Shown here piece after piece: positions 1-26,860 of a stretch of DNA of 64,000 bases. This DNA is from Coriobacteriaceae bacterium (GTDB lineage: Bacteria; Actinomycetota; Coriobacteriia; Coriobacteriales; QAMH01), in the NCBI GenBank assembly GCA_021203765.1, contig JAJQAN010000026.1, positions 2,010 through 66,009 on the forward strand. The letters run 5' to 3'. The position numbers and the translations under genes are program-made. Every line of letters starts with the position of its first letter. Position 1 is the stretch's first letter. A model generated the notes under the pieces. That model had not been told where the DNA came from, did no database searches, and saw only the letters and a list, made by a program, of their open reading frames with translations.

Positions 1-1119
1 ATGTGCCTGCACCACCTCCGGGCAGGCGAAGTAGTAGCGGCAGCGGTCGTAGAAACTGAAGGCCCGAGCGATACGCTGCTCGTTGGGGGTGCCGGTGTAG
101 TAGTCCTTCCACGCAGACGGATCGTCGAGCATGGCCTGCTCGAGTGTCGCACGATAGTTCGACCAGCGCTCGGGCATCTCGGCGAAGACCTCCTGTTCGA
201 TCTGCTCGAGTGCGAACAGCGCCTCGCGCAAAGCGAAGGTCAAAGCCGGCCCGACCTTGAGTATGGCGACGCCGTCCTCACACATGGCGGCAAGGTTGCG
301 GGTCGTCTGGTAGTCGGTCGAATGCCCTTCGATACAGAGCTGCTCCTTGCGCATCGCGTCCGCCAGATCGGCCGCACGCGGACGGTTGTATTCGTCGAGG
401 GTGAACTCGTGGAACTCGACACCCAGCTCGACGACCAGGGCGATGACACGGTCGAAGACATCGGAGAGTCCTTCGTCCGCGAACGCCTGCTTATAGATCG
501 CGATGGTGTTGATCGCATCGTCAGCAGACGTCACCCCCATCTCCTGTGCATTGAAATCCCCGCCCGGCACCGGTACCTCGCTGCCGATGACATAGACCGG
601 CTCGGGGGCATCGGGATGGGAGTCCCAGTAGCTCACAAAAGCCTCCTCCGCCACACGACAGAGGCGTGCGCCGCGGCGTGCACAGGTCTCGGTCAAGAAG
701 GGCTCGTCCGGATCGTCGGAGGCAAGGCGCATGCTCGTGTCCAGATGGATCTTCGAGTAGCCGGCGGACACACATGCAGCGACGAGCTCCTCGGCATGGT
801 CCATGGCCTCATCCTCGTCACAGTCCGTCCATGGAAGCGGGCCCAGATGGTCGCCTCCCAGTATGACGTGCGAGAGCGGAACCGAGATCTCGTCTGCCAG
901 GCCTTTGACGAAGGCTGCGAAGTCGGCAGGCGTCATACCGGTGTAGCCGCCGTCCTGGTTGACCTGGTTGGAAGTCGATTCGATGAGCGTCGGGGTGTTC
1001 GTCTTGGAGGCCTTGAGCAGGGCGGCACGGATGACGTCTTCATGTGCCGAGCAGCATGAGAAGATACCGACACGTCTGCCGGACTTGTTCTTTTGGACGA
1101 TCTCCTGCAGCGTGTTCAT
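1..1119 (-). CDS. GatZ/KbaZ-family protein (tagatose-bisphosphate aldolase accessory subunit / ketohexose-phosphate epimerase family); C-terminus lies beyond window start
   Basis: Absent from the ORF track because no stop codon falls inside the window. My translation of the minus strand from ATG (1119-1117) gives MNTLQEIVQKNKSGRRVGIFSCCSAHEDVIRAAL...LIESTSNQVNQDGGYTGMTPADF...ILGGDHLGP...GYSKIHLDTSM...YVIGSEVPVPGG...EGHSTDYQT...ILKVGPALTFALREALFALEQIE. These match the conserved blocks I recall from E. coli GatZ/KbaZ. The frame stays open to nt 1. Confidence 0.85.
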   Translation of the reverse strand, partial: MNTLQEIVQKNKSGRRVGIFSCCSAHEDVIRAALLKASKTNTPTLIESTSNQVNQDGGYTGMTPADFAAFVKGLADEISVPLSHVILGGDHLGPLPWTDCDEDEAMDHAEELVAACVSAGYSKIHLDTSMRLASDDPDEPFLTETCARRGARLCRVAEEAFVSYWDSHPDAPEPVYVIGSEVPVPGGDFNAQEMGVTSADDAINTIAIYKQAFADEGLSDVFDRVIALVVELGVEFHEFTLDEYNRPRAADLADAMRKEQLCIEGHSTDYQTTRNLAAMCEDGVAILKVGPALTFALREALFALEQIEQEVFAEMPERWSNYRATLEQAMLDDPSAWKDYYTGTPNEQRIARAFSFYDRCRYYFACPEVVQAH

Positions 1120-1138
1120 GACAGCCGGCCCCTTCTTT

Positions 1139-2200
1139 TCAGTCCTCGTCTGCTTCCAGCGAGTCGATCAGCAGTTTGCCCTGCACCTTCGGGCCGTTTT
1201 CGTAGCGGTCGAAAGCCTGCGCGGTCTGGGAAAGCGGATAGACGGTATCGATCATCTCGGGAACGATCTGCAAGGTCCCCTCGTCGAAGAACTCGTTGAC
1301 CCGGGTCCATTCGATGCCGGGCCACGGCGCGGAATAGGACATCCACGAGCCGCGGACGGTGAGTTCCTTGCGGTTGATGGCCTCCCACTGCGCGGAGGTG
1401 AAGGTGACGTCCGCGCTCGGGGTTCCGACGAACATGACGGAAGCCTTGTTCGCGGCCACCTCGAAGGAGTTCAGGATGGTGTGCGGGGTCCCGGCCGTGT
1501 CGAAGACGAAGTCGAAGGGCTTTCCGTCGTTTGCGGCATAGGCACGCTCGGCCCAGCCTTCCCCGTCGACCTCGACCAGGCAGTCGAGCCCCGCCTTTGC
1601 AGCGGTCTCCAGGCGTTTGGCATTGCGGTTGGCGACGACGACGGTTCCGGCGCCGTAACCTGCGAGCGCTTGGGCGAGCAGGATGCCGACGGTTCCGGCA
1701 CCGATGACGATGGCATGACCGCCTTCGCGAAAGCCGCTCAACTCGATGCCGTGGACAGCGACGGTCGACGGCTCAAAGAAGGCGCCCTCGATGTCGCTCA
1801 CCCCATCGCCTAAAAACATGATGTTTTGTACCGGCAGACAGACATATTCGGCCATGCTGCCCGCGCTGCGAGAGCCGACGAAACCGTAGGAGGAGCAGAG
1901 CGAGTAGTTGCCGGCGCGGCAGTCCGGGCAGTCGAAGCACGGTTCGAGCGGGATACCGCTGACGCGCCGCCCGACGTAGCTCGGATCGACGCCTTCGCCT
2001 ACTTCGACGATCGTGCCGGAGAATTCATGCCCTAAGATGATCGGGAAGAAATGTATGCGTCCCTGCAGCACGCGCGGCACGTCCGAACCGCAAATGCCGG
2101 TGTAGTGCACCTGGACCAGGACCTCCCCTGCCTGCGGCTGCGGCCGTTCCACATCGGAAATCTCGATCGTATCGGTTGCTGTGAGGACGGCGGCTTTCAA
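1139..2200 (-). CDS. Zn-dependent medium-chain polyol(-phosphate) dehydrogenase, TarJ-like role suspected
   Basis: 353-aa ORF. GHEFSG catalytic-Zn motif, CFDCPDCRAGNYSLC structural-Zn cysteine cluster, VIGAGTVG Rossmann motif. Lies 8 nt after the cytidylyltransferase gene and 19 nt before the GatZ-like gene on the same strand. Confidence 0.85.
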   Translation of the reverse strand: MKAAVLTATDTIEISDVERPQPQAGEVLVQVHYTGICGSDVPRVLQGRIHFFPIILGHEFSGTIVEVGEGVDPSYVGRRVSGIPLEPCFDCPDCRAGNYSLCSSYGFVGSRSAGSMAEYVCLPVQNIMFLGDGVSDIEGAFFEPSTVAVHGIELSGFREGGHAIVIGAGTVGILLAQALAGYGAGTVVVANRNAKRLETAAKAGLDCLVEVDGEGWAERAYAANDGKPFDFVFDTAGTPHTILNSFEVAANKASVMFVGTPSADVTFTSAQWEAINRKELTVRGSWMSYSAPWPGIEWTRVNEFFDEGTLQIVPEMIDTVYPLSQTAQAFDRYENGPKVQGKLLIDSLEADED

Positions 2201-2208
2201 GCAGGCTC

Positions 2209-2925
2209 CTAGAAGTAGTAATCGTGGAAGAGCTGCTCGAACGCTTCCATGTCGTGTCGGTAGGTGATCTTTAAGTTGAGCAGGTCGGTGGGGATGACCT
2301 CCATGGGGATGTCGTAGGCAAGCGCCAACGCCCCGGCGGAGGTGTAGTTCTCGAGCTCCTCGATGCTGAGCGAATCGTAAATGCTCCAGATGCGGCCGAA
2401 CTCGAAGGCCTCGGGGCTCGCCCCGGTCACGACGCTTTGACGCGGTATAACTTCCTCGAGCATCTTCGTATCGTCATCGACCTTATAGACCGTGTCGTAC
2501 TGGCACTCCCCCATCGTCGCCCCACCCCAGCGGTGGGCGGCATCGGAGAGCTCCTCCAGATGCGGCTCGTCAACATAGGGGTGCGTGACATCGTGGATGA
2601 AGACGATGTCGTCTTCCTGAGCAGTATCGGCGACAGCCTGCAGACCGCATCTGACCGATTCCGAGCGGCTTTGGCCGCCGGCGACGACCGTGTAGTCGAA
2701 GTCGTAGCCGAGCTTGGCGATCTGATCTTCGGTGAAGTCGAGCCACGATTCGTGGCAGACGACGACCATCTGGTCGGCGAACTGGTTTTTGGCGTATTTC
2801 TCGACGAGATAGATGAAGGTGGGCTTTCCCTCGACCTCGACGAACTGCTTGGGGATGTCCGCGCCGAAGCGCGTGCCCGAGCCGCCCATCATCAGCAGGA
2901 GAATCCGTTTGTAGTCGCGTGCCAT
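2209..2925 (-). CDS. IspD/TarI-family nucleotidyl (cytidylyl) transferase
   Basis: 238-aa ORF. N-terminal LLLMMGGSGTRFGADIPKQF glycine-rich NTP-binding loop typical of IspD/TarI. Paired with a downstream dehydrogenase, as in CDP-alditol synthases. Confidence 0.8.
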   Translation of the reverse strand: MARDYKRILLLMMGGSGTRFGADIPKQFVEVEGKPTFIYLVEKYAKNQFADQMVVVCHESWLDFTEDQIAKLGYDFDYTVVAGGQSRSESVRCGLQAVADTAQEDDIVFIHDVTHPYVDEPHLEELSDAAHRWGGATMGECQYDTVYKVDDDTKMLEEVIPRQSVVTGASPEAFEFGRIWSIYDSLSIEELENYTSAGALALAYDIPMEVIPTDLLNLKITYRHDMEAFEQLFHDYYF

Positions 2926-3027
2926 GAAATGCCCTTCTTCACACAGTGCAGACCAGTATACTACGTGCGTTTATGGCACCTTGCGTCCTCTACATTCTTT
3001 CTAGGGAATAAGGGACGGACGGCGTAC

Positions 3028-5637
3028 TCAACCGGTGCCCTCGGTCCGCGGGCGGTCGAGCTCCTTAATCGCCTCATAGACTCGCTCGCAGCACCTGCCG
3101 TCGCGGAAGACGAAGGTCTCGTCCATGCGGCGGGCGTATTCTTCGGCCGGCGTAAAACCACGCTCGGCGATCTGCTCCAGTTCGTCGAGGAGCGCATCCT
3201 GCGTCTCGGCGACCGGGCCGAAGCCGTCCCGCTCGTAGTCGAAATAACCTGTGGAGTAGCTGTGGCCGCCGGAGAAGAACTCGTCTTTGTCGAACTGGTA
3301 GTACAGGCAGGGCGTGCCGAGATAGGCGACGTCGAAGGCGGTGGACGAGTAGTCCGTGATGCAGACCGACGCGCGGGAGAAGAAATCCTGGATGGAAGAG
3401 TCCCCGTCGGCGGAGGCGAGCTCCACGTAGTCCGGCACCGAGAACATCCCGTCTTTCACATACGGCAAGACGTTGGTATGCGGGAAGAAGACGACCTTGC
3501 AGCCGGCGCGTTCTGCGATCGTGTGCAGCCGGTCGTTGGCCAAAAAAGATTCCCAGCACCGCCTGTACTCGGAGTCGGCGAACGCGGGGCAGAATTCATG
3601 TTCGGCGCTGCTGTCCAAGGTATCCCCTGCCAGATACCCGCGCCAGGTGGGGCTGACGAGTATCTCGGGGGCATGTCCTTGTGCGTCGAGCGCCTTTTGC
3701 AACAGCGCATCGTGACGCGGAAAACCCGTCAAGGGCACCTGGCACGGCGTGAACACGTAGGGCGAGCCGTCTTCGACGATCGAGCGATGCTCCTGCGGCG
3801 TGACGGTCACCAGCAAGGTGATGGGCTTGTCGTTGAGCCAGTTCGACAGGTTGTCCTTGGTGACGCCGTGCTGCAAAAAGACGAAGTCCTTGGACTTGTA
3901 GAAATTGTCGCCGAAATATGAGTGGATGTAGACATCGGCATGCGAGCTGATGATCTTGGAGCAGGACCTGAGGACCCGTTCGTGTTCGGCGGACCCGTAG
4001 GCGAGCAGCTTGAAGCCCTCGTCACGCAAGCGCTTCCAGTCCGGCGAATCCTTGCGCAAGACGAAGAAGCAGTCCTGCTCGGGATGCTCGTGCATCAGGT
4101 AGCGGTAGAAATGCTCGCCGTTGTCGTCTGCCTGGGTGTCGCGGTCCATGACGATCCAGACATCGCCTTTTTGCTCGTAGGGTTCCCAGTTGCGCGTGTA
4201 GCGTTTGACGAGCTGCCCTATTCCGGCGCCGCCCGTAAACCGCTTGCCCTTGCCGGAGACGAGAATGCTCCCCTCCCGGGCCTTGTCGGTGGCAAACGAG
4301 AGTATCTGCCGGCGGTTCCCATACGGTACCCAGTGCTCATAGAGCCGCGAGGCAGTCGTTCCGAAAAACCAGCGCTGCACCATCTTGGATTCTGTGGGCT
4401 CGAGCCGCTCGCCGTCCAGATAGAAACGGACGTCTTCTGAGAACGCCTCGATGAGGATGCGCTTTTTGGCAAAGTCGATCCTCCTCAGATGCACGCGTTC
4501 CTCCGGAAGTTCGGCCGCCTCGAAAAAGAAGGACAGGCAGCGCTTCTGCGGATAGCTCAGATGACGGGCGGGGGAGTTCCAGAACACGGACGGCTCTATG
4601 AGGGAACACACCTGTCGCAGCAGGGAGAGGAACTCCGCCCTGCCGTCCTCGTCGAGCACGGAGTCCACGCGCTCGGGGTGGTTCAGCGTCCGTTTGACCG
4701 TCCACGCCACATCGTTTAAAACCGCGTTCTGCGTGTAAGCCGGGACGTACCCCCGTCGTTGCTGAACAAACGTCAAAAGGGCCAACCACCCCCGGCGGGG
4801 AAGGGTCAGGAACCGGTCGGGATCCTGCCACGAGGCGTCAAGCGTCGAGTCCGCACCCGTACGCCTGCGGTAGAAATATCTCGGAGCCTGCAGAAACCCG
4901 ACGATGCCTGTCTGGAGGGTGGCCAGATACTCGCCGACAAAACAGGCGTCTTCGAACGCGGGTTTCAGGTCCTCATCCAGGCTCAGCCCGCCTTCTCTGA
5001 TACGCGACAGACGGAAAAACGCCGTGGCCATCGACAGCTGCATGTACATCTGCTCGTCGCGAATCGCAAAGTAGCTGTCGCCGTTTTCGAAGCGGTAGTT
5101 GAGCGGATGGCTGTCCTCGTATGCCGCCTCCTCTTCGAGATAGAAGAGCATGTTGCAGCTCACCATTTGCAATGCCGGACGCAACCCGACCGCCCGGTCG
5201 ACCTCTTCGAAATAGTCTTCCGAGACGAAATCGTCGGGATCGATGAAGGTGACCCACTCGGTCTGGGCATGCTGGAGGCCGAGGTTGCGGGCAGAGGCCT
5301 GCCCGCCGTTTTCCTTGTGCAGATACGTGATGGCATCCGGCCATCTTTCCTGCCAGGCCTTGATGATGTCGGCGGAGCCGTCGGTCGACCCGTCGTCGAC
5401 CGTGATGATGCGGAGACGCTCCTTGGAAATCGTCTGTGCATACAGGCTGTCGAAATAGTCGTCGAGGTAGCTTTCCGCGTTGTAGACGGCGGAAACGACC
5501 GTATAGGTCTCCTGTCCGTCATACGTGTCCGGCTTGCCCGTAACCCTGTGCCGGCTCGTTTCGGCTGTCTTTGGGTCCGAATCCTGGCTCTGCGGCAGAG
5601 GCTGTTTGGCATTTTGTCGGGATGCTGGTAAAGACAC
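3028..5637 (-). CDS. Bifunctional GT2 glycosyltransferase / TagF-type CDP-alditol (glycerol/ribitol) phosphotransferase, copy 1
   Basis: 869-aa ORF. The N-terminus has GT-A signatures (YTVVSAVYNAESYLDDYF, ITVDDGSTDGS, FIDPDD). The C-terminus has TagF-family signatures (FLQHGV, VSPTWRG, FFPHTNV, ITDYSSTAFDVAYLG). GTG start at 5637 is preceded by GGAGG with a 6-nt spacer. Confidence 0.85.
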   Translation of the reverse strand: MSLPASRQNAKQPLPQSQDSDPKTAETSRHRVTGKPDTYDGQETYTVVSAVYNAESYLDDYFDSLYAQTISKERLRIITVDDGSTDGSADIIKAWQERWPDAITYLHKENGGQASARNLGLQHAQTEWVTFIDPDDFVSEDYFEEVDRAVGLRPALQMVSCNMLFYLEEEAAYEDSHPLNYRFENGDSYFAIRDEQMYMQLSMATAFFRLSRIREGGLSLDEDLKPAFEDACFVGEYLATLQTGIVGFLQAPRYFYRRRTGADSTLDASWQDPDRFLTLPRRGWLALLTFVQQRRGYVPAYTQNAVLNDVAWTVKRTLNHPERVDSVLDEDGRAEFLSLLRQVCSLIEPSVFWNSPARHLSYPQKRCLSFFFEAAELPEERVHLRRIDFAKKRILIEAFSEDVRFYLDGERLEPTESKMVQRWFFGTTASRLYEHWVPYGNRRQILSFATDKAREGSILVSGKGKRFTGGAGIGQLVKRYTRNWEPYEQKGDVWIVMDRDTQADDNGEHFYRYLMHEHPEQDCFFVLRKDSPDWKRLRDEGFKLLAYGSAEHERVLRSCSKIISSHADVYIHSYFGDNFYKSKDFVFLQHGVTKDNLSNWLNDKPITLLVTVTPQEHRSIVEDGSPYVFTPCQVPLTGFPRHDALLQKALDAQGHAPEILVSPTWRGYLAGDTLDSSAEHEFCPAFADSEYRRCWESFLANDRLHTIAERAGCKVVFFPHTNVLPYVKDGMFSVPDYVELASADGDSSIQDFFSRASVCITDYSSTAFDVAYLGTPCLYYQFDKDEFFSGGHSYSTGYFDYERDGFGPVAETQDALLDELEQIAERGFTPAEEYARRMDETFVFRDGRCCERVYEAIKELDRPRTEGTG

Positions 5638-5688
5638 GCATGACCTCCGCTACACGCCTGCGACAACGTGGTCGAGCACACAGGCCAT

Positions 5689-5697
5689 ATTGTACAG
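5689..5697 (-). promoter_or_regulatory. Putative promoter -10 element CTGTACAAT (minus strand) for GT2-TagF copy 1
   Basis: Forward sequence is ATTGTACAG. It lies about 50 nt upstream of GTG 5637, in the 207-bp divergent intergenic region. Same 9-mer family as 11809, 31839 and 43486. Confidence 0.45.
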
Positions 5698-5844
5698 TCC
5701 TTGCCTTTCTGCACATGAATTTACAGAGCAACTACACCTGTCATGCGGCGCTGCCGGGTCCATCGTCCTCCCCGCTTCAAAATCCATTCTCTCTATAGGA
5801 TAATGGGGCGACATGGTGGCGCACAGGAAAGGTCCTACCCGTAC

Positions 5845-7845
5845 ATGACGGCTCCCTCCTCTTCAAACATCGATCTGACGCTCGTTGTCCCGATATACAA
5901 CGCCCTCCCCTATTTCCGCCGCTGTATCGACTCCATCGTCGGACAGGATTGCGGCCGCTACAGCATGGAACTGCTCTTGGTCGACGACGGTTCGACCGAC
6001 GGCTCCGGAGCCTACTGCGACGAGGTCGCCGCAGAACACGACTCCGTACGTGTTATCCACGAGGAGAACTCCGGCACCCCGGCACACCCCCGCAACGTCG
6101 GCATCGACAACGCGCAGGGGGAATATCTCTTCTTCTGCGACGCCGACGACTATTTCGAAGACGGCGCCATCGTCGCCATGCTCGACCACGCATCCGCAGA
6201 CGGCTGCGACGTCGGGATATTCAAGATGGAGGGGCATGGCAGGAAGACGCCGGGCGTCGACCTCTTCCTCTCAAGCCAAAAGCACTGCACGATCGACAAT
6301 TCCGCGATACTGAACAGCCTCGGCCCGTGTAAGCTGTACCGGACCTCGCTGATACAGACGCATGCCTTGAAGTTTCCCGAAGGCATCGCCTTCGAGGACC
6401 TGCCTTTTACGCTGGAGTGCTACTTTTTGGCCGACGACATCTGCCTGTACAGCGATCGGACCTACTACCACACCGTCTGGCGCGACGACGGCGCCTCCCT
6501 TTCGCAAGGGGGCAGCACCGCAGCCGTCTGGGGCACCCTGCAGGCACGGATCACCGGGCTCACCACCTACATCGACACCTGCCAGCGCTACCGTCAACTC
6601 GACAAATGTCCCGAGCTCTATACGCGTATCGTCGACCTTGCCACCGATGATATGTATCTGTGGGCACAGACGGAGCCCGAGCACCTGCCCGACATCATGC
6701 AAAGCGTGCGTGAGGTCATCCAGCCCCTCGATCGTGTAGAGCTGCGCTCCGTACTCTTTTTAAAGAAGCTCATCAACTTCGATGCGCTGCTCGAAAGCAC
6801 GGAGAGCTTCGTCGAGATCGAACGGACGTGGCCGGACGGCCCGCAGGTCGCCTTTGCCGAAGACGGCGGCCGCCTCTGCTATTCCGTCTACTCCGATGAA
6901 GACGATCGTCTGCTGCTGAAACGACAACTACCGCTCGTGGAAGGACAGCAAGACCAGCCCCTCACCGATCCACATATATTCAGAAACCAGATAACCGACG
7001 TCACGGCAGACGATGAGCGACTCACCTTCACGGGCCACGTCCACCTTCTGCACCGCTTCGATCAGGGCACGATAACGGCCAGGCTGCGCACCTCTTTTGA
7101 CAACACGGAGGCGGATCGCCTGTTCGACGATGTGGAGACCACAGTACCCTCGGTCCGCCATGCCTATGCCTCGGTCTATGAGATCGACTTCGACTGGAGC
7201 TGTCGTTGCCGTTTCGCCGACTGGGCTCCGCAGCAGGATGCGGGCAGAACCCGGGTTGATTTCCTCTTCGATGTCGAATTTGACGACGGGGACGTGTTGT
7301 CCAACCGTTTCGGGCATGACCGCCTCCCGGAGGTCTTCGAGGCGTTCATGTCACGGCAGACCTGGGCGGGCGGCTACCTGTTCATCCCGCAGCAAAGTGA
7401 ATTCCAAAACTTCAGCTTTGCCGCCTTTTCCCAGAACTACCCCTTCATCAAGGGTGCCCGCATCGGCTTTGGAGATAAAAACGACGGCACGCCGGCCTTG
7501 AAGGTGCGGGCCAGCACCCGGATCAACAAACTCGTCGCCGCCGAGCTCTCCTTGGTCTTTTTGGACCACCGTGGCAGGGAGGCCTTGCGTCTGGACCTGC
7601 GTGAGCGGGTGCAGGACGGCAGGCCCCTCTATCGCCGGGTCTTTCCGATCGCGCGCCTGGAGAAAACCCTGAAAAACGGCACCTACCGCATCGAGCTGCA
7701 GGCCGAGATCGCAAACGGGACGGTGCACAGCAGCGACATCCGGGAAATGGACAACGCGCAGCAGACCTGCTCCTCACAAAAATGCCTCCATTCCCTGTCT
7801 GTGTCTGAAGACGGCGCGGTAACATATGCGATACGAAAGGGCTGA
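5845..7845 (+). CDS. GT2 glycosyltransferase with a large uncharacterised C-terminal region (TarS/TarP-like architecture)
   Basis: The N-terminal roughly 220 aa are GT-A (LTLVVPIYNALPYFRRCIDSI, LLLVDDGSTDGS, FFCDADD). The remaining roughly 450 aa carry no motif I recognise. Start set to ATG 5845 (MTAPSSS), with AGGAAAGG 13 nt upstream; the track ORF begins at 5743. Confidence 0.75.
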   Translation: MTAPSSSNIDLTLVVPIYNALPYFRRCIDSIVGQDCGRYSMELLLVDDGSTDGSGAYCDEVAAEHDSVRVIHEENSGTPAHPRNVGIDNAQGEYLFFCDADDYFEDGAIVAMLDHASADGCDVGIFKMEGHGRKTPGVDLFLSSQKHCTIDNSAILNSLGPCKLYRTSLIQTHALKFPEGIAFEDLPFTLECYFLADDICLYSDRTYYHTVWRDDGASLSQGGSTAAVWGTLQARITGLTTYIDTCQRYRQLDKCPELYTRIVDLATDDMYLWAQTEPEHLPDIMQSVREVIQPLDRVELRSVLFLKKLINFDALLESTESFVEIERTWPDGPQVAFAEDGGRLCYSVYSDEDDRLLLKRQLPLVEGQQDQPLTDPHIFRNQITDVTADDERLTFTGHVHLLHRFDQGTITARLRTSFDNTEADRLFDDVETTVPSVRHAYASVYEIDFDWSCRCRFADWAPQQDAGRTRVDFLFDVEFDDGDVLSNRFGHDRLPEVFEAFMSRQTWAGGYLFIPQQSEFQNFSFAAFSQNYPFIKGARIGFGDKNDGTPALKVRASTRINKLVAAELSLVFLDHRGREALRLDLRERVQDGRPLYRRVFPIARLEKTLKNGTYRIELQAEIANGTVHSSDIREMDNAQQTCSSQKCLHSLSVSEDGAVTYAIRKG

Positions 7846-7883: not shown

Positions 7884-9149
7884 ATGTATGTCCGGGTCAT
7901 GAGCAAGGTGTTTCTCGTCGTCTTCCTGGTCGTGATGGGTGCGACTTTGGGAACGAAATGCCTGGACGGCCTCGGAGTGGAGTTTCCCGACTGGCTTTCC
8001 ATAGGCAACGAGAAGTCATACCTTGAGGGAAGGGACTACGAAACCCTGCCCGAGCCGACGCTCGAGGCGGTCCAGTCACAGGAATTCCAGGACAATTTCG
8101 AGCAGTTCATGGCCGATGCGACGCCCATGAAGGATTCCGCGCTGTTGGCAAACGCCCAGGTGCAACGGAGCAGCATCACCTTGTCCGCCGCCGTCTTCGG
8201 CTATACGACCTATCCGACCTTCTTTGAATCGGAATACGTCTATGACGCCGCGCACGACGCCGTCATGCCCACGCTGACGAGCGCCGATGAGGAAAAAGCC
8301 GCCCAGTACGAAACCGCTGCAGAGGCCTACCAGGCCTTCGCAAAGCGGCATACCGACATCGGGATGGCGATATATGAAAACGACCGGCTCGGTATGTCGA
8401 CGAACAATCCGACCGACATGTTGGTAAGCGATCCGGTCGACACGTCGTTTGTCGAGGAGCACTTTTATGACGGGCTCGGCGAAGGGATAGCGGTCATAGA
8501 CGGCACCTACGACGACCTCGAGGATGCCCTGGAGAACTATTTCAAGACCGACCACCACTGGCGTATCTCGGGGGCATACGCGGCATACGTCTCGATCCTG
8601 TCCGAATTGGAACCTGACGCGGTACCGATCACCGATTACGAGACGGTAGACTTTTCTGCGGATCCCTTCTACGGCAGCTCGGCACGGGCCGGCCTGTACC
8701 TGACCGCAGATCCCGACCATATCGAAGACTATTGGATCGACCTGAGTGGGATCGAGGTCAGCATGGACGGAGAAGAGAGGCCGACAAGTTCGCTCGACCA
8801 TCGCACGGAATACGAGCGCGGCGAAGAAAACCAGGAGCTGTTCACCAACCACTACGCCGGGTACTTCCACACGGACTACGGCCTCATCAAGCTGCACAAC
8901 CCCAAGGCCACAAGCGACAAATCCCTGCTGATCGTCAGCGATTCCTACTCGAACAACATGGAACGTTTCTTCACCAGCGAATACGAATACGTCTACGTGA
9001 TCGATCCGCGCTACCATTCCCGGACCTTGGACGAATTTCTCGAAAAGCACGAGGTCGACGACATCGCGTTCATCAACAGCTCGCTCAACATCGCCTCCGA
9101 GGAGACGGTCGCAGTGCTCAGTGAATGGACGGTCGACGGGCAGTCCTGA
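7884..9149 (+). CDS. DHHW-family protein (extracytoplasmic partner of MBOAT O-acyltransferases; AlgJ/DltD-like role)
   Basis: 421-aa ORF. N-terminal membrane anchor/signal (VFLVVFLVVMGATLG). Literal family motif KTDHHWRISGAY. GAGGAG lies 6 nt before the ATG. Confidence 0.75.
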   Translation: MYVRVMSKVFLVVFLVVMGATLGTKCLDGLGVEFPDWLSIGNEKSYLEGRDYETLPEPTLEAVQSQEFQDNFEQFMADATPMKDSALLANAQVQRSSITLSAAVFGYTTYPTFFESEYVYDAAHDAVMPTLTSADEEKAAQYETAAEAYQAFAKRHTDIGMAIYENDRLGMSTNNPTDMLVSDPVDTSFVEEHFYDGLGEGIAVIDGTYDDLEDALENYFKTDHHWRISGAYAAYVSILSELEPDAVPITDYETVDFSADPFYGSSARAGLYLTADPDHIEDYWIDLSGIEVSMDGEERPTSSLDHRTEYERGEENQELFTNHYAGYFHTDYGLIKLHNPKATSDKSLLIVSDSYSNNMERFFTSEYEYVYVIDPRYHSRTLDEFLEKHEVDDIAFINSSLNIASEETVAVLSEWTVDGQS

Positions 9150-9158
9150 CCGCGGACC

Positions 9159-11756
9159 CTATGAGGGACGATCCAGACCTTTGATCGCCTCGTAGACCCG
9201 CTCGCAACACCTGCCGTCGCGGAAGATGAAGGTCTCGTCCATGCGACCGGTGTATTCCTCGGCGGATACGAAACCACGCTCGGCGATCTGTTCCAGCTCA
9301 TCCAGGAGCGCATCCTCCGTCTCGGCAATCGGACCGAAACCGTCTTTTTCGTAGTCGAAATAACCTTGGATGTAGCTATGGCTGCCGGCATAGAAGCTGT
9401 CCTTGTCGAACTGGTAGTACAGACACGGTTTGCCGAGGAAGGCCACATCGAAGATGGTGGACGAGTAGTCCGTGATGCAAACCGACGCACGGGAGAAGTA
9501 GTCCTGGATGGAAGCGTCCCCGTCGGCGGAGGCAAGCTCCACGTAGTCCGGCACCGTAAACATCCCCTCCTCCACATACGGGAGGATGTTGGCGTGTGGG
9601 AAGAAGACGACCTTGCAGCCGTAGCGCTCCGCGATCTCCTGCAGGCGCGCGCTGGCCAGCAACGATTCCCAGCGTCTCTTGTACTCCGATTCCATGAAGA
9701 CGGGGCTGGTCTCACGCAGGGCGCTGTTTTGTATGATCGGTCCGGCCAGGTCGTTACGCCAGGTGGGATTCACGAGTATCTCGGGGGCGGATTCCTCCGC
9801 GCTCTGCGCCTTTTCCAAGAGCGCATCGTGACGCGGAAAACCCGTCAAAGACACCTGGCTCGGCGTGTACACGTAGGGCGAGCCATCTTCGGTAAACGAG
9901 TGATACTCCTGCGGGATCGTGGTCACGAACAGGGAGACGGGCACCGTGTTGAGCCAGTTTGAGAAGTTGTTCTGATTGACGCCATGCTGCAAAAAGACGA
10001 AGTCCTTCGAGTCGTGGAAGTGGTCTCCGAAATACGAGCGCACGTAATAGCCGGCCTGCGAGCTGATGATCTTCGAGCAGGACTTCAAGATCCGCTCGTG
10101 TTCTGCAGACCCGAAGGCGAGCATCTTGAAGCCCTCGTCCTGCAGGCGTTGCCAATCCGCTGAATCCTGACGCAGGACGAAGTAGGCGTCCTGCTCGGGA
10201 TGCTCCCGCATCAGGTAGCGGTAGAAGTGCTCGCCGTTGTCGTCTGCCTGGGTGTCACGGTCCATGACGATCCAGACGTCGCCGTCCTGCTCGTAGTCCG
10301 ACCAGCTGCGCGTATAGCGGTCAAGAAGTTCTCCGACGGCGGTGCTGCCCACAAAGGATGTGCCACGGACGGAGAGGATGCCCCCCCTGACCTCGTCGGT
10401 GCCGAAGAAAAAGATCTGCCGGGGATCCTCATACGGTATCCAGCGCTCGTAGGATCGTGCAGCAGAGGTTCCGAAAAACCAGAGTTGCACAGCCTTGGAC
10501 TCCACGGGAGCGACCTCACCGCCGTCCAGGAAAAAGGAGACGTCTTCCGAAAAGGTTTCGATAAGCAGGCGCTTTTTTGCCAGATCCACCTTCCTGAGAT
10601 ACGCCCGCTCCTCCACAGGCCCAGGTGGGTCGAAGAAGAAAAGCAGACAGCGCTTCTGGGAGTAGTTCAGGTAACGGTCGGGGAAGCTCGCGAGAACGGA
10701 AAGGTCGATGTGGGCACAGACCTGCCGGAGCAGGGAGCAGAACTCGGCCTCGCCTTCCTTGTCGAGCACGGCTTCCGCCCGCTCGGGGTGGTTCATGAAG
10801 CGTTTGACCGTCCACGACAGGTCGTAGAGGATCGCACGCTGGGTATAGGCGGGAACGAATCCCTTCTTCTCCTGCGCGAATTCGAAAAGCGACAGCCACC
10901 CCCGACGCGGAACCACCAGCAGCCGCCCGGAGCCGCTCCACGACGTGTCGAGACCGGAATCCGCCGTCTGTCTCTTGCGGTAGTAATACTTCGGCCGGCT
11001 CAAAAAGCCGACGATCCCCGCTTCCAGAGACAGCAGGTACTGGCCGACGAAAAGCGCGTCTTCAAAGACGGGCTTCATGCCTTCGTCGGCTTCCAGCCGG
11101 TACCTGCCGATGAGGGACAGCCTGAAAAAGGCAGCGGTGACGGACAGCTGTATGGGGATGTCCTCGTTGTTGAACGCGAAGTAGCTGTCGCCCGTTTCGA
11201 AGCGGTAGCGCAGCGCATGGGTATCGCGGTACTCGTCCGTGGTCTCGAGGTAGTAGATGTAGTTGCAGCTCACCAGCTGGAGGGCAGGCCGCTTTTTGAT
11301 CGTCCGGTCGACCAGCTCGAAGTAGTCTGATGAGACGAAGTCATCTTGGTCGATGAAGGTGATCCACTCGGTCTGGGCATGACGCATGCCGAGGTTGCGG
11401 GCAGAGGCCTGTCCGCCGTTTTCCTTGTGCAGGTACGTGATGGCGTCCGGCCATTTTTGTTGCCAGGCTTTGATGATGTCTGCGGAACCGTCGGTCGATC
11501 CGTCGTCGACGGTGATGATGCGGAGGTTCTCCCTGCTGATCGTCTGGTGGTACAGGCTTTCGAAGTAATCGTCGAGGTAGGCTTCGGCGTTGTAGACGGC
11601 GGTGATGACCGTGTAGGTCTCCTTGCCCCGGTACGTGCCCGACTCACCCTCCTGCTTGGTCGTGGCCGTGCGACGACCTCGCAAGCGGCGGACAAGACCG
11701 TCCGGTAAAGCCCGCTTGAGCCATGTCCTGAACCGCTTCACCGACGATTGCGGCAC
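9159..11756 (-). CDS. Bifunctional GT2 glycosyltransferase / TagF-type phosphotransferase, copy 2 (paralog of 3028-5637)
   Basis: Collinear with copy 1 over its whole length. Identical runs include DVWIVMDRDTQADDNGEHFYRYLM, SKDFVFLQHGV, FSRASVCITDYSST and FRDGRCCERVYEAIK. Start set to in-frame GTG 11756, preceded by GGGAGG with a 6-nt spacer; this is the same layout as copy 1 and lies downstream of a CTGTAGAAT -10 element. The track ORF extends to 11927. Confidence 0.8.
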   Translation of the reverse strand: MPQSSVKRFRTWLKRALPDGLVRRLRGRRTATTKQEGESGTYRGKETYTVITAVYNAEAYLDDYFESLYHQTISRENLRIITVDDGSTDGSADIIKAWQQKWPDAITYLHKENGGQASARNLGMRHAQTEWITFIDQDDFVSSDYFELVDRTIKKRPALQLVSCNYIYYLETTDEYRDTHALRYRFETGDSYFAFNNEDIPIQLSVTAAFFRLSLIGRYRLEADEGMKPVFEDALFVGQYLLSLEAGIVGFLSRPKYYYRKRQTADSGLDTSWSGSGRLLVVPRRGWLSLFEFAQEKKGFVPAYTQRAILYDLSWTVKRFMNHPERAEAVLDKEGEAEFCSLLRQVCAHIDLSVLASFPDRYLNYSQKRCLLFFFDPPGPVEERAYLRKVDLAKKRLLIETFSEDVSFFLDGGEVAPVESKAVQLWFFGTSAARSYERWIPYEDPRQIFFFGTDEVRGGILSVRGTSFVGSTAVGELLDRYTRSWSDYEQDGDVWIVMDRDTQADDNGEHFYRYLMREHPEQDAYFVLRQDSADWQRLQDEGFKMLAFGSAEHERILKSCSKIISSQAGYYVRSYFGDHFHDSKDFVFLQHGVNQNNFSNWLNTVPVSLFVTTIPQEYHSFTEDGSPYVYTPSQVSLTGFPRHDALLEKAQSAEESAPEILVNPTWRNDLAGPIIQNSALRETSPVFMESEYKRRWESLLASARLQEIAERYGCKVVFFPHANILPYVEEGMFTVPDYVELASADGDASIQDYFSRASVCITDYSSTIFDVAFLGKPCLYYQFDKDSFYAGSHSYIQGYFDYEKDGFGPIAETEDALLDELEQIAERGFVSAEEYTGRMDETFIFRDGRCCERVYEAIKGLDRPS

Positions 11757-11808
11757 ACGCGACCTCCCAAGTGAATCAGCATGAAAACCCGCTTCGTACA
11801 GACCAAAC

Positions 11809-11817
11809 ATTCTACAG
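11809..11817 (-). promoter_or_regulatory. Putative promoter -10 element CTGTAGAAT (minus strand) for GT2-TagF copy 2
   Basis: Forward sequence is ATTCTACAG. It lies about 50 nt upstream of GTG 11756, the same geometry as copy 1. Confidence 0.45.
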
Positions 11818-11980
11818 CACCACATACCCTTATACGAATTGACAGGGGAACGCCCGTGCCGCATAAAAACACTACGGCATGAACACCTAGGGGCTGACGG
11901 CACCAAGATCGCCTGTGCGCAGGCCAACCGTCTGTACTAGAATCGAAATTTGCAAATCGCTCCCAAGCCGAGGTGGGTTC

Positions 11981-13522
11981 TTGGTCTTTTCAAGTTCGAC
12001 ATTCCTGCTCGCCTTTCTGCCCGTCACGCTCATCCTCTACTTCATCATCCCCTGCCGGCCGTACCGGAACGTCCTGCTGCTGGTCGCCTCCCTTTTCTTT
12101 TACGCATGGGGCGAGCCGTCCTACGTCGTGCTCATGCTCTTTTCGATACTGTTCAACTGGCTGCTCGGCTGCGCTATCCAAGGGTCCAAAAACCATGCCA
12201 GGATCCCCCTGGTCATAAGCCTCATCCTGAATCTGCTGGTTCTGGGCTTTTTCAAATACGAGGGCTTCGTCGCCGACAGTATCAACACGCTGCTCGGCAC
12301 CTCCATCCCCAACCTGGAACTGCCCTTGCCGATCGGCATATCGTTTTACACACTGCAGGCGCTCTCCTATGTCATCGACGTCTATCGCGGGAAGGTCGCC
12401 GCCCAGAAAAATCCGCTCTACCTCGGCATGTATATCGCCATGTTCCCCCAGCTCATCGCCGGTCCCATCGTCCGCTATTCGACGATCGAGGAACAGGTCC
12501 AAAACCGTAAGGAGAACTTCCGGGACTTCTGCTCCGGGGCACGCCTGTTCGTCATCGGGATGGGAAAGAAGGTTCTGCTCGCCAACATCGTCGCCATCCT
12601 CGCCGAGGAGATGTTGGCGCGGGGCGGGGCCGACATCGGCGTCATCGGGGCATGGAGCGGTCTGGTCGCCTACGCCTTCCAGATCTTCTTCGACTTCGCC
12701 GGCTACTCCGACATGGCTATCGGACTGGGTAAGATGTTCGGATTCCAGTACCTACGCAACTTCAACTATCCCTACATCTCCAAGAACATCACCGAGTTCT
12801 GGCGCCGCTGGCACATCTCGCTTTCCTCGTTTTTCCGCGACTACCTCTACATACCACTCGGCGGAAGCCGCGTCGCAAAGCCACGCTGGGTCTTCAACCT
12901 CTTCGTCGTCTGGTTTTTGACGGGCCTGTGGCACGGGGCGGCGTGGAACTTCGTCTTGTGGGGACTTTTCTACCTGGCGATCCTGCTTTTGGAAAAACTC
13001 GTGTGGGGCAATCTGCTCGCACGTCTGCCGTCGATCGTGCAACACCTCTATTCCATCCTGGTCTTCATGTTCGCCTGGCTGCTCTTCTGGATCGAGGACA
13101 TGGGGCAGATGGGGCAGTATCTGACGGCCATGTTCGGCGGTTTCGGCCTGACCGGCGGGGCCACCCTGTGGGAGCTCACGTTCTGGGAATATCTGCCCGT
13201 CCTCGTGATCTGCATCGTCGCCGCCACCCCGATCCTGCCGTGGCTGCGTGCCAAACTGGTAGCCTGGGTCAACGGTCGCAAGCTGAAAAACTTCCTGGAA
13301 TGCGACATCCCCAACGAGAAGGCGCTGGCTACGAAGAGCCTCTGCGATTACCAAGGCTATCTCGAAGAAGGCAGGGCAGCGGGGACGCTGCATTCGAAGC
13401 GCTCCGCCGTATTCTCCGTCATTTTGACCCTGGCAGACATCGCCTTGATCGCCCTGTTCGTCTTGAGCATCTGTGCGATCGTCTCGGGGTCATTCAACCC
13501 CTTCATCTACTTCCGCTTTTAG
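11981..13522 (+). CDS. MBOAT-family membrane O-acyltransferase (AlgI/DltB/PatA-like)
   Basis: Multi-TM protein with FYTLQALSYVIDVY and the catalytic-His block FWRRWHISLSSFFRDYLYIPLGG. Start set to TTG 11981 (giving MVFSSSTFLLAFLP, a typical AlgI-type N-terminus), preceded by GAGGTGG with a 4-nt spacer. The track ORF starts at 11915. Confidence 0.85.
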   Translation: MVFSSSTFLLAFLPVTLILYFIIPCRPYRNVLLLVASLFFYAWGEPSYVVLMLFSILFNWLLGCAIQGSKNHARIPLVISLILNLLVLGFFKYEGFVADSINTLLGTSIPNLELPLPIGISFYTLQALSYVIDVYRGKVAAQKNPLYLGMYIAMFPQLIAGPIVRYSTIEEQVQNRKENFRDFCSGARLFVIGMGKKVLLANIVAILAEEMLARGGADIGVIGAWSGLVAYAFQIFFDFAGYSDMAIGLGKMFGFQYLRNFNYPYISKNITEFWRRWHISLSSFFRDYLYIPLGGSRVAKPRWVFNLFVVWFLTGLWHGAAWNFVLWGLFYLAILLLEKLVWGNLLARLPSIVQHLYSILVFMFAWLLFWIEDMGQMGQYLTAMFGGFGLTGGATLWELTFWEYLPVLVICIVAATPILPWLRAKLVAWVNGRKLKNFLECDIPNEKALATKSLCDYQGYLEEGRAAGTLHSKRSAVFSVILTLADIALIALFVLSICAIVSGSFNPFIYFRF

Positions 13523-13544: not shown

Positions 13545-14630
13545 TCATGGGCGAGCTTCTTGCGCGACGGCGTCCGCGGCCTCGGGCAGCTTCTTATTCC
13601 TTCCCGTCAGCCGTCTGATGATCGGCGTGTCGATCTTGTAGGCGGCAAACGCGATGATAGCGGCGCAGAGCAGCATGACAAAGTAGCCGGCTACCCAGCC
13701 CTCGTAAGCGGCGGGGAAGATGAGCCGGTAAACCTTGTTGCACATCATGTGGGCGAGGTAGAGCTCGAGCGAGAACGCCCCGAAGAAGGCGAAGATGGTG
13801 TCGAGGACGCTTTTGTGCGACTTACGGTGCAAAAGCGAACAGCCGTGGAAGATCGCGGCGAGCGCGTAGGCAAGCGAGATGCCGCCGACCATATAGAACA
13901 GACGGGTGTAGATCTGTTCGGGCAACAAGCTGTTGACCTTGACGAAGAAGAAGGCCACGACCGCGACGACGACGAGGGCGAACCAGGCGGGGTTGACCTC
14001 CTTTTTCTCGTAGACGTACTTGCCGGCCCAGCATCCGACGATAAAGACGGGGAAGCGTGTGAGAGCAACCTCCACGCTGTCATAGAACTCGGGCGCAGCG
14101 ACAGAGAGCGAGAAGATGAGCAGGTAGGTCACAGCCAATAGAACTAACAGCCGCACGAACGGGTGCTTGCCACTGAAGAGCCAGCGAAAGACAAACGGAT
14201 AGAGCAAGTACAGGATGACGATGAGCGAAACAAACCAGATGTTGGTATCCCCCGTCACCCAAAAAGAGAGCAGGGTCAGGCGCAGGACGTAGAGGCCCCA
14301 TGCGCCGCTGGTGACGAGCAGGTAGGTCCAGTAGACGATGAAGATCAGCAGCGCGGGGACGAAGATGCGTGCAAAACGCTTCTTGATGAAGGCATAGGTG
14401 TCGGGGTTTTTAAAAAACGAGAAGTAGAGGCAGACGCTCGACAGGAATAAGAAGATGTCGACGCCGACGTTTCCCGCGTTGATGAAATCCTGCAGGGGCT
14501 GCAAGGCGTCGATGCCGAAGGAGTAGTCGATGCCGTCGATGTCATGACCGTGAAAGACCATGATCCACAGGATGCTGAAGCCGTAGATGGCGCCGCGGTG
14601 CTGACTGATGATGTCGAGCTTGAAACGCAT
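13545..14630 (-). CDS. Acyltransferase-3 family membrane protein (O-acyltransferase), copy A
   Basis: 361-aa polytopic protein. N-terminal QHRGAIYGFSILWIMVFHG block resembles the acyltransferase-3 R...G...H motif. Paralog of 15789-16877. Confidence 0.75.
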   Translation of the reverse strand: MRFKLDIISQHRGAIYGFSILWIMVFHGHDIDGIDYSFGIDALQPLQDFINAGNVGVDIFLFLSSVCLYFSFFKNPDTYAFIKKRFARIFVPALLIFIVYWTYLLVTSGAWGLYVLRLTLLSFWVTGDTNIWFVSLIVILYLLYPFVFRWLFSGKHPFVRLLVLLAVTYLLIFSLSVAAPEFYDSVEVALTRFPVFIVGCWAGKYVYEKKEVNPAWFALVVVAVVAFFFVKVNSLLPEQIYTRLFYMVGGISLAYALAAIFHGCSLLHRKSHKSVLDTIFAFFGAFSLELYLAHMMCNKVYRLIFPAAYEGWVAGYFVMLLCAAIIAFAAYKIDTPIIRRLTGRNKKLPEAADAVAQEARP

Positions 14631-14704: not shown

Positions 14705-15799
14705 CTACCCTTCTTTCAGATGCCGCGGCTCATGCTCGGTGCGTGGCATCGCCCTGGCACACAGGCGCCGCAAGGCGGCCACCCACTTGTTCGGAAAGGC
14801 CGGCAGGGCCAAAAGGAACGCAGTCAGGACACCGATGACGAACGGGAAGACGATGCCGACCCACGCCCCGATGGAAAGCATCGCCTCGGGTAGACCGAAA
14901 CGCTGCCAGGCATAGTACAGGAGCAGATGCACGATGTAGACCTGCAAAGAGCGCTCCCCCACCGTCGATAAAAACGAATGCCTGCTCGGGGTGATGACGA
15001 GGATGGCGATGCTGATAAGGGCAATCAGCAGATAGCTCGCAAGACGCAAAAGCGCATAGACCCCGGCGGACAAGGGGTAGGTCTTTTGGAGGGCGGGGAG
15101 CGTGTTGGCGCCGGTGCAGAGCCTCCGGATCATGAGGGAGATATCGTCGGGGACGCCGTACAGAAGCAGAAAATACAGCACGAGAACGACGGCGGCCGTG
15201 AATATCAGGCTCCATCTGAACGGCCGTCCCCGCTCATCGAAGCGTTTGCGCCACGATAAGACGGCCCCGGACTCCAGGTAGAAGCCGACAGCATACACCG
15301 GCAGGTAGGTGAAGAAACGCGCATTGGCCAACAGGTTCGGATCGTCGACGAACAGACAGCAGCCGACCGACAGCACGAGGCTTCCCACGAGCGCGACCGG
15401 CCAGCGCAGTTTTGCCAAAAGCGGCGTGCAGGCCACGAAGCAGCCGAGGGTGAGCAGATACCATGCCCCGCTGCTGACCTCGAAGGGATTGTACGTGCGC
15501 GCATTCCCGAGCAGAAGGTCCTCGCAGTAGGCGGCGGTGTAGAACAAGACGAACAGGAGCAGATAGAGCAGAACGTTGTCGAGCCTGAATCCCCGTCCGT
15601 CCTTGAAGGAGCGTGCCGCGAACAGACCGGAGCAGAACAGGAACAGCGGCATATGGAAGGTGTAGATGAAGTTCGTCAGCGCCAGGATCGCCTTGGAATC
15701 GGTCAGGGTGGTAAAGGTGATCAGCATGTGGCCGGCGACCACAAGGCAGATGAGGATTCCCTTGATGTTGTCGATGTATGCGCTGCGCTCAGCTGCCAT
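14705..15799 (-). CDS. Acyltransferase-3 family membrane protein, divergent copy
   Basis: SAYIDNIKGILICLVVAGHML N-terminal motif and about 10 predicted TM helices. Start set to ATG 15799 (MAAERS). This start overlaps the upstream gene's stop by 11 nt. Confidence 0.7.
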   Translation of the reverse strand: MAAERSAYIDNIKGILICLVVAGHMLITFTTLTDSKAILALTNFIYTFHMPLFLFCSGLFAARSFKDGRGFRLDNVLLYLLLFVLFYTAAYCEDLLLGNARTYNPFEVSSGAWYLLTLGCFVACTPLLAKLRWPVALVGSLVLSVGCCLFVDDPNLLANARFFTYLPVYAVGFYLESGAVLSWRKRFDERGRPFRWSLIFTAAVVLVLYFLLLYGVPDDISLMIRRLCTGANTLPALQKTYPLSAGVYALLRLASYLLIALISIAILVITPSRHSFLSTVGERSLQVYIVHLLLYYAWQRFGLPEAMLSIGAWVGIVFPFVIGVLTAFLLALPAFPNKWVAALRRLCARAMPRTEHEPRHLKEG

Positions 15800-16877: not shown

Positions 16878-16881
16878 ATCC

Positions 16882-23727: not shown

Positions 23728-23827
23728 ATGATTCCGTTCGCTTTCAAGCGACCTGCACAAAACTCGTATAGTCTACCATGCTCGAATGCCGGCAGATGCC
23801 AGCGGTGGCGGGCACGGCCCGGGCTTT

Positions 23828-24874: not shown

Positions 24875-24886
24875 GTGCGCGTCCCC

Positions 24887-25606: not shown

Positions 25607-25649
25607 CTGCACCAATCCCCTTTTCTTACATGCGGTACGTCTTGTTGCG

Positions 25650-26855: not shown

Positions 26856-26860
26856 GATGC

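Follow-up and report, generated by a model that had tools for sequence, protein, structure and literature searches.

A gene trio in a Coriobacteriaceae wall-polymer locus predicted to make a CDP-activated hexitol, probably CDP-galactitol

Gene layout and proposed pathway

At the left-hand end of a 64,000-nucleotide (nt) stretch of DNA from a Coriobacteriaceae bacterium (GenBank assembly GCA_021203765.1, contig JAJQAN010000026.1, positions 2,010 to 66,009; hereafter the window), the minus strand of positions 1-2925 carries three tightly packed genes, identified from the open reading frame (ORF) listing and by reading the sequence. In transcription order they encode a cytidylyltransferase (CTase), a zinc-dependent medium-chain dehydrogenase (ADH, for alcohol dehydrogenase) and a GatZ/KbaZ-family protein. 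Judged from sequence comparisons, this trio probably forms a biosynthetic module for a CDP-activated hexitol, with CDP-galactitol the most probable product, intended for a teichoic-acid-type wall polymer. From gene order, family membership, residue conservation, co-occurrence across genomes and a substitution in the cofactor site of the ADH, we infer what each enzyme catalyses, which hexitol is formed and what polymer would receive it. The three genes and the gene upstream of them are as follows (lengths in amino acids, aa).

2925..2209, minus strand: IspD/TarI-superfamily CTase, 238 aa, ATG start (PF01128, 1e-26)
2200..1139, minus strand: GatD-like Zn-dependent medium-chain reductase (the ADH), 353 aa, TTG start (Pfam ADH_N and ADH_zinc_N)
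1119..1, minus strand: GatZ/KbaZ-family gene, 373 of 441 aa inside the window, C-terminus past the edge (PF08013, 2.5e-151)
5637..3028, minus strand: fusion of a family 2 glycosyltransferase (GT2) and a TagF-type domain (CDP-alcohol phosphotransferase), upstream of the CTase, 869 aa (Glycos_transf_2, 7e-27; Glyphos_transf, 1e-32)

In the proposed pathway, the GatZ-type enzyme would epimerise fructose-6-phosphate (F6P) at C4 to tagatose-6-phosphate (T6P) by a Zn-dependent retro-aldol/aldol mechanism. The GatD-like reductase would then use NADPH to reduce the C2 keto group, running the catabolic GatD reaction in reverse and yielding galactitol-1-phosphate (L-galactitol-1-phosphate, which is the same as D-galactitol-6-phosphate). 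Condensation of this ester with CTP by the TarI-related CTase would give CDP-galactitol (here CDP-6-D-galactitol, or CDP-1-L-galactitol) and pyrophosphate, and TagF-type and/or LicD-type phosphotransferases would move galactitol-phosphate into, or onto, the wall polymer. LicD-family enzymes are CDP-alcohol phosphotransferases. The conserved neighbour of the trio is a LicD gene in Coriobacteriia and TagF genes in the low-GC loci described below; in the window, the adjoining GT2-TagF fusion is a candidate user of the CDP-hexitol. A preliminary description of this DNA had outlined the same succession, from F6P through T6P and a hexitol phosphate to a CDP-hexitol, and those of its steps that can be examined in silico all came out in its favour (a GatD-like ADH, a teichoic-acid context and no catabolic partners).

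The arrangement given in that description, three packed genes on one strand with gaps of 8 nt (2201-2208) and 19 nt (1120-1138), was confirmed by the ORF listing, by sequence reading and by Pfam, as was the position of the trio just downstream of a GT2-TagF polymerase gene, now placed at 5637..3028. Purine-rich stretches resembling ribosome-binding sites precede all three starts (TAGGAG, GAAGGGG and GAAGGG), and the N-terminus that follows from the TTG start of the ADH, MKAAVL, lines up with MKSVV of Escherichia coli GatD. The fusion and the CTase gene are separated by 102 nt, in which a pattern scan found no minus-strand terminator-like site; scanned over positions 1-6000, the sequence held no promoter-like site for the trio, and its terminator-like matches all fell inside genes. 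A reductase and a CTase standing side by side next to TagF-type genes, with TagGH, LCP and LicD genes seen in related loci, is the arrangement of a CDP-alditol synthase module.

In the source databases, the CTase of the window corresponds to protein P0241 and the full-length GatZ-like protein to P0001; the latter has 441 aa, is 100% identical across the 373 residues of the ORF, and recovers the part of the gene that lies past nt 1. For these proteins and their relatives, the source names are '2-C-methyl-D-erythritol 4-phosphate cytidylyltransferase' for CTases of the trio type and 'tagatose-bisphosphate aldolase non-catalytic subunit' for the GatZ proteins. Both names are probably wrong for the wall-locus setting.

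A GatD-family reductase with an altered cofactor site

The preliminary description had called the Zn-dependent ADH 'TarJ-like', which holds at the superfamily level only, the actual homologue being E. coli GatD. Among curated NCBIfam models, the ADH scored best against galactitol-1-phosphate 5-dehydrogenase GatD (NF007642; 275.6 bits, runner-up 165 bits), and its best solved structure was E. coli GatD (PDB 4a2c, 2e-66; next match 5e-37), to which it is 37% identical over 315 residues. Against the TarJ orthologue encoded elsewhere in the window (25737-26855) it reached merely 27 bits, and Staphylococcus aureus TarJ (6xh9) was not among its PDB matches at ≤1e-20. Since GatD interconverts galactitol-1-phosphate and T6P, membership of the ADH in this family points to T6P independently of the neighbouring GatZ, and strengthens the idea originally put forward.

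Both zinc sites are conserved, the catalytic one with its Cys and His-Glu ligands and the structural one with its four Cys, and the motifs GICGSD, LGHEFSG and PCFDCPDC...YSLC align with E. coli GatD. Twelve GatD homologues from catabolic settings, E. coli GatD among them, share 60 invariant columns, and at 46 of these ≥90% of the trio-linked ADHs have the same residue. The sole column lost in every trio-linked ADH is the Asp closing Rossmann strand beta-2 (D192 in E. coli): an acidic residue occupies this position in 12/12 catabolic homologues versus 0/16 trio-linked ADHs, which have N, G, V, R or K instead (N191-R192 in the window ADH). In 12/15 trio-linked ADHs, Arg or His takes the place of the Ile that follows, and the Asp is missing from the Coriobacteriia and low-GC clades alike. 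In medium-chain dehydrogenases, the beta-2 Asp binds to the hydroxyl groups of the adenosine ribose and keeps NADP out; the usual NADP(H) signature has a small or neutral residue in its place, with Arg as the next. The ADH is thus predicted to be an NADPH-dependent T6P reductase forming galactitol-1-phosphate, and the cofactor-site change fits the recruitment of an oxidative, NAD+-dependent catabolic enzyme to reductive biosynthesis with NADPH.

A GatZ-type protein without an aldolase partner

Within the window, the GatZ-like ORF covers positions 1-362 of the 420 in the PF08013 profile. Its full-length counterpart P0001 can be aligned over its whole length with PDB 2fiq (E. coli GatZ, 3e-102) and 3txv (Sinorhizobium meliloti, 3e-101). 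The ORF scored below the equivalog cutoffs for TIGR02810, GatZ and KbaZ (436.5 versus 568.8, 399 versus 707 and 363 versus 579, respectively), scores that are lowered by its truncation at the window edge. Palur et al. 2025 (PMC11907403) described a distinguishing GatZ active-site set of Cys20, Glu44, Asp87, His88, Glu171, His257 and Lys279 (E. coli GatZ numbering); all seven are present in the window protein, as C23, E47, D90, H91, E181, H266 and K288, and the set is invariant across 86 aligned sequences. The same study obtained F6P-to-T6P epimerase activity in vivo from E. coli GatZ and KbaZ, and cites in vitro and genetic evidence for Agrobacterium and Sinorhizobium homologues as T6P 4-epimerases.

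No homologue of a GatY/KbaY aldolase partner was found in the 64-kb window or in any trio locus. In such loci the 'aldolase chaperone' role would have no target, which leaves the epimerase role. From its homologues, E. coli GatZ/KbaZ and the enzymes of rhizobia, we predict that the GatZ-like protein is a Zn-dependent F6P/T6P C4-epimerase.

A distinct subfamily of TarI-related cytidylyltransferases

The trio CTase (CYTIDYLYLTRANSFERASE) has its closest structures among TarI-type enzymes, at about 100 bits (Listeria 3f1c, Bacillus subtilis 4jis and S. aureus 6xhp), and is about 30% identical to TarI. It falls under the curated NCBIfam cutoffs for both TarI (ribitol-5-phosphate CTase, NF001183; 120.8 versus 166) and IspD (TIGR00453; 127.5 versus 181.3). 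CTases of low-GC trios are 46-47% identical to that of the window and score just 97 bits against B. subtilis TarI; being closer to the window CTase than to TarI, they indicate that trio-linked CTases form their own cross-phylum subfamily.

The trio CTase retains GGxGxR...PKQ, the nucleotide-binding motif, as well as the C-terminal Lys, and R19, K26 and K219, which from general knowledge of E. coli IspD we take to be catalytic, are invariant in the subfamily alignments (A2 and A3). At the alditol site, the Arg of the HDxxRP acceptor motif is replaced by an invariant His115. Relative to TarI-like proteins (including the two other IspD-like proteins of the window), the acceptor side reads HDxTHPY(V/F)D for HDxVRPF, (Q/E)YDT(V/C)Y for xxTI, and GASPE(A/G)F for GQTPQSF. 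The enzyme is best described as a predicted hexitol-phosphate cytidylyltransferase that would form a CDP-hexitol. A profile of the subfamily matched 882 protein clusters at E ≤ 1e-40, and all named ones are annotated as IspD.

We also considered whether the trio CTase could be the IspD of the methylerythritol phosphate pathway; this was rejected, given that the subfamily is tightly linked to GatZ and GatD and that the window holds two other IspD-like genes.

The trio recurs across phyla in teichoic-acid loci

Phylogenetic co-occurrence, which the preliminary description had suggested checking, was scanned from two sides. Starting from GatZ (one genome per GTDB species, clade alignment A1), we found seven Coriobacteriia loci with at least 60% GatZ identity, including Slackia exigua ATCC 700122, metagenome-assembled genomes (MAGs) of Eggerthellaceae, and Parvibacter. 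A GatD-like ADH was adjacent in 7/7 of them, and a CTase in all but one, which is cut by the contig end. The same arrangement is present in Slackia heliotrinireducens (complete genome), Paraeggerthella and loci L001-L006; in S. heliotrinireducens it reads CTase-ADH-GatZ-LicD, with MBOAT, Acyl_transf_3, GT2 and a TarI/J-like pair nearby. The 71 other GatZ loci (≤55% identity, mostly Firmicutes) had either GatY, a combination of GatD-like ADH and kinases, or none of these, and the CTase was absent from all but two (L078 and L085); the neighbours of catabolic GatZ genes at this level of identity are GatY aldolase, phosphotransferase system (PTS) genes or kinases.

The two exceptions come from 'Bacilli' MAGs of 26% GC, and have the order CTase-GatZ-ADH with two TagF genes beside the trio in both; Pfam places two TagF genes, Acyl_transf_3, TagG/TagH and a DltA-like gene around the trio of L078. 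Locus L173 has two TagF genes followed by CTase-GatZ-ADH, and the trio is also present in L095. A third order, with ADH divergent from GatZ-LicD-CTase, was found in L175 ('Eubacterium sp.', 53% GC). At positions 138-7620 of that locus, the divergent ADH is followed by GatZ, a 1,061-aa LicD protein and the CTase, with a 190-aa SIS-domain (sugar isomerase-type) gene next.

Starting from the CTase (metagenome contigs, alignment A2), we obtained 80 IspD-like loci, of which five showed 47-63% identity before a sharp drop to ≤36%. GatZ was adjacent in 4/5 loci at or above 47%, and neither GatZ nor a GatD-like ADH in any of the 75 others. Fisher tests on the co-occurrence counts gave values from 3e-6 (4/5 versus 0/75) to 3e-10, which ignore shared ancestry and are descriptive only. 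Altogether, the CTase subfamily occurs in 18 distinct loci, 16 of which have the full trio; these 16 span three gene orders and 26-62% GC, with teichoic-acid genes (TagF, TagGH, LicD, LCP, DltA-like) as neighbours throughout; co-occurrence across phyla is thereby borne out. No PTS, kinase or GatY aldolase gene was found beside the trio in the trio loci scanned. In neighbour-joining trees, the Coriobacteriia GatZ sequences form one clade, as do the Coriobacteriia ADHs, and the low-GC trio sequences fall outside, which indicates that the association was assembled or transferred more than once.

In relatives with the same gene order (L001-L006, L007/L008, L012, L013-L017, L093 and L176), reading past GatZ revealed a LicD-family phosphotransferase of 560-600 aa as the next gene in every case where the contig continues, ten relatives in all. 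One such protein, P0153 (585 aa, from a Coriobacteriaceae MAG), has no match anywhere in the window; the missing 207 nt of the GatZ tail and the 1,758 nt of the P0153 gene fit within 2,532 nt outside the window, so the LicD gene should lie there, in the ~2.5 kb after GatZ. The case that the preliminary description had set against its own proposal, a catabolic operon continuing leftwards, was not seen: no catabolic partners occur in the 64 kb, and relatives have LicD after GatZ.

Two further loci of the CTase subfamily (L097 and L174) carry CTase and ADH. Both pairs sit inside teichoic-acid clusters (251-1300 and 6007-6714 in L097; 7001-8782 in L174). Within the CTase subfamily, these pair-only loci alone keep an acidic residue at the D192 position of the ADH, Asp in L097 and Glu in L174.

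Alternative readings

Several points weigh against the CDP-galactitol interpretation. GatD relatives are annotated or used as pentitol-phosphate dehydrogenases. Such relatives are also mentioned in that capacity in PMC6685057. The NCBIfam score of the ADH (275.6) is far under the GatD equivalog cutoff of 550, so that its substrate specificity is not guaranteed. The co-occurrence statistics disregard shared ancestry, and L097 and L174 have no GatZ in the available flank; in L097, no GatZ C-terminus was found upstream of the ADH, where 250 nt are full of stop codons. GatZ may therefore be dispensable, or encoded elsewhere, in those two genomes. The left-hand neighbour of GatZ on the present contig was deduced from relatives rather than read directly. 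Finally, a galactitol-phosphate polymer was not found in the literature searched, and the prediction thus has no chemical counterpart yet.

Some of these points bear on a first alternative, in which the product is a different alditol (talitol/altritol, glucitol, mannitol, or a pentitol such as arabinitol) and GatZ supplies another ketose phosphate or acts as an accessory. The sub-cutoff GatD score and the two loci with a CTase-ADH pair but no nearby GatZ would accommodate it, and C2 reduction of T6P could in principle yield the talitol epimer. We nevertheless consider a different alditol unlikely: GatZ-family activities known to date all concern tagatose phosphates (PMC11907403), GatZ adjoins the pair in 16/18 CTase-subfamily loci and in all three gene orders, and the nearest relatives of the ADH are ADHs located beside GatZ in hexitol/tagatose catabolic clusters.

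A second alternative retains CDP-galactitol as the end product and changes the order of events, with the CTase making CDP-6-tagatose from T6P and CTP and the dehydrogenase then reducing the nucleotide-linked ketose. Both characterised CDP-hexitol routes, to CDP-6-D-glucitol in Campylobacter jejuni HS:5 and to CDP-mannitol in pneumococcus 35A, activate and then reduce (PMC10918830), and the Arg-to-His change shows that the acceptor site of the CTase subfamily has been remodelled. However, those routes use short-chain dehydrogenase/reductase (SDR) enzymes (PF01370) and not Zn-dependent medium-chain dehydrogenase/reductase (MDR) enzymes, and the window has an IspD+SDR pair of its own (23828-25687). 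The ADH keeps 46 of the 60 columns invariant in catabolic GatD, which acts on the free phosphate ester, and the MDR-based TarJ/TarI route reduces first, according to work cited in PMC10918830. Activation before reduction thus appears quite unlikely, and reduction of free T6P remains our preferred second step.

That the trio is a catabolic galactitol/tagatose module (GatD plus GatZ) merely lying next to an unrelated cytidylyltransferase is very improbable. In its favour, the best-known members of both families are those of the E. coli gat operon, and many GatZ homologues at ≤55% identity are catabolic. Against it, no transporter, kinase, PTS or aldolase partner occurs in the window or in more than ten related loci; the genes lie 8 and 19 nt apart on the strand of the CTase; the trio recurs across phyla within teichoic-acid loci, in three orders; and no trio-linked ADH retains the Asp that specifies NAD. 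A gat-type catabolic operon was accordingly rejected on gene context and cofactor site; specifically, no GatY, GatA, GatB, FGGY or PfkB kinase homologue was found anywhere in the 64-kb window.

Comparison with known systems and significance

One of the systems closest to the predicted module is the TarI/TarJ CDP-ribitol synthase of S. aureus, B. subtilis W23 and Streptococcus pneumoniae. Both combine a Zn-dependent MDR ketose-phosphate reductase with an IspD-superfamily CTase, are encoded in a teichoic-acid locus and feed TagF-type polymerases, and the reduce-then-activate order is likely shared. Unlike in TarI/TarJ, the trio reductase is not a TarJ orthologue, and the CTase, at about 30% identity to TarI, has His for a conserved Arg. 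The trio moreover adds GatZ to make its ketose phosphate, whereas ribulose-5-phosphate, the substrate of TarI/TarJ, is a central metabolite. The trio would thus work like TarI/TarJ yet belongs outside both orthologous groups, with one extra committed step.

The pathways to CDP-6-D-glucitol (C. jejuni HS:5, HS5.18/HS5.17) and CDP-D-mannitol (S. pneumoniae 35A, Mnp1/Mnp2) likewise derive a CDP-hexitol from F6P for a surface polymer, using an IspD-family CTase (PMC10918830). They need two enzymes and form CDP-6-fructose before an SDR reduction, in contrast to the GatD-like MDR and C4 epimerase of the trio, and the added epimerase leads us to predict a galacto-configured hexitol, unlike the products of those routes. 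The interconversions themselves (galactitol-1-phosphate, T6P and F6P) and the protein families are those of GatD and GatZ in the E. coli gat operon, and the same interconversions occur in the rhizobial T6P 4-epimerase pathway (Wichelecki 2015 and Kohlmeier 2019, as cited in PMC11907403). In contrast to both, the trio is predicted to be anabolic: it has no PTS, kinase or GatY, its ADH site is of the NADP type, its operon includes a CTase, and it sits in a wall-polymer locus.

Phage binding, immune recognition and antibiotic tolerance are all influenced by wall teichoic acids and related polymers, whose known polyols are glycerol, ribitol, arabinitol, erythritol, mannitol and glucitol. The preliminary description knew of no characterised pathway with the present combination of enzymes, and our literature searches likewise found none. 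They returned no mention of CDP-galactitol, CDP-tagatose, CDP-hexitol or a galactitol-phosphate teichoic acid, although most subscription journals lie outside the literature searched and absence is not proof; GatZ together with cytidylyltransferase gave nothing relevant, and matches to 'galactitol' were derivatives from methylation analysis. The chances seem evenly balanced that CDP-galactitol is a previously undescribed nucleotide-activated alditol and galactitol-phosphate a new wall building block (in Coriobacteriia common in the gut and mouth, namely Slackia, Paraeggerthella and Eggerthellaceae MAGs, and in some low-GC Firmicutes), with GatZ in its first anabolic role, as a committed C4-epimerase step.

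If so, a galactitol-phosphate polymer would add to the known antigenic chemistries, in bacteria that abound in the human gut and mouth. The long-standing ambiguity over GatZ/KbaZ would be settled by a setting in which GatZ must act alone, with no aldolase, and several hundred proteins labelled IspD or 'non-catalytic subunit' would have to be re-annotated. The trio would also provide a natural NADPH-driven route from F6P to galactitol-phosphate, of possible use in rare-sugar biocatalysis. The CDP-galactitol reading is directly testable in cultured type strains.

The surrounding wall-polymer locus

Pfam scans indicate that the window from nt 1 to ~28,300 is one large wall-glycopolymer locus, containing two GT2-TagF fusions, two further TagF genes, GT2, DHHW and MBOAT genes, two Acyl_transf_3 genes and an RmlC-like gene. 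Besides the trio it holds two more CDP-alditol modules, namely an IspD+SDR pair and a TarJ orthologue with an IspD-ended protein.

3028-5637 and 9159-11927, minus strand: paralogous GT2-TagF fusions, 869 and 922 aa, 67% identical
7884-9149, plus strand: DHHW protein
11915-13522, plus strand: MBOAT protein
13545-14630 and 15789-16919, minus strand: two Acyl_transf_3 genes
16882-17679, minus strand: lone RmlC-like gene (dTDP-4-dehydrorhamnose 3,5-epimerase domain at ORF residues 91-260)
21370-22596 and 22633-23760, minus strand: two mid-locus ORFs without Pfam matches, 408 and 375 aa, with coding-like GC3 (0.77 and 0.74)
23828-24874, minus strand: SDR of the IspD+SDR pair, best solved relative C. 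jejuni HS:5 CDP-6-D-fructose reductase (8V4G/8V4H, 9e-39)
24887-25687, minus strand: IspD-type CTase of the IspD+SDR pair, adjoining the SDR
25737-26855, minus strand: TarJ orthologue (S. aureus TarJ 6xh9, 2e-62)
25737-28261, minus strand: span of the pair formed by the TarJ orthologue and a 466-aa protein, whose IspD domain lies at residues 232-462 and whose N-terminal ~230 residues have no Pfam match
29043-31769, minus strand: CysN/CysC fusion (EF-Tu-type GTPase and adenosine 5'-phosphosulfate (APS) kinase) and CysD, for sulfate activation, bordering the wall-polymer locus

The IspD+SDR pair is of the type that makes CDP-glucitol or CDP-mannitol via a CDP-ketose, and the locus may therefore encode three CDP-alditol routes. 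The separate TarJ/TarI-type pair at 25.7-28.3 kb agrees with the earlier view that a ribitol route exists here distinct from the trio. The paired GT2-TagF fusions are possibly polymerases for different CDP-alditols.

The DHHW, MBOAT and Acyl_transf_3 genes suggest O-acylation of the polymer. As a separate observation, the trio of S. heliotrinireducens (L176) is also accompanied by MBOAT and a Pfam-less gene after it, and by Acyl_transf_3; many other loci also have an Acyl_transf_3 gene after the trio. No RmlA, RmlB or RmlD homologues were found among the other window genes scanned with Pfam, and the intervals at 14.9-15.8 kb and 17.7-18.3 kb contain no ORF of coding-like composition. CysNC and CysD could serve ordinary sulfur assimilation or supply 3'-phosphoadenosine 5'-phosphosulfate (PAPS) for a sulfated polymer. 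They belong to the other 36 kb of the window, which is of housekeeping character and further includes IspG, RseP, CdsA, UppS, Frr, PyrH, EF-P, shikimate genes, ThyX, DnaJ and LepA.

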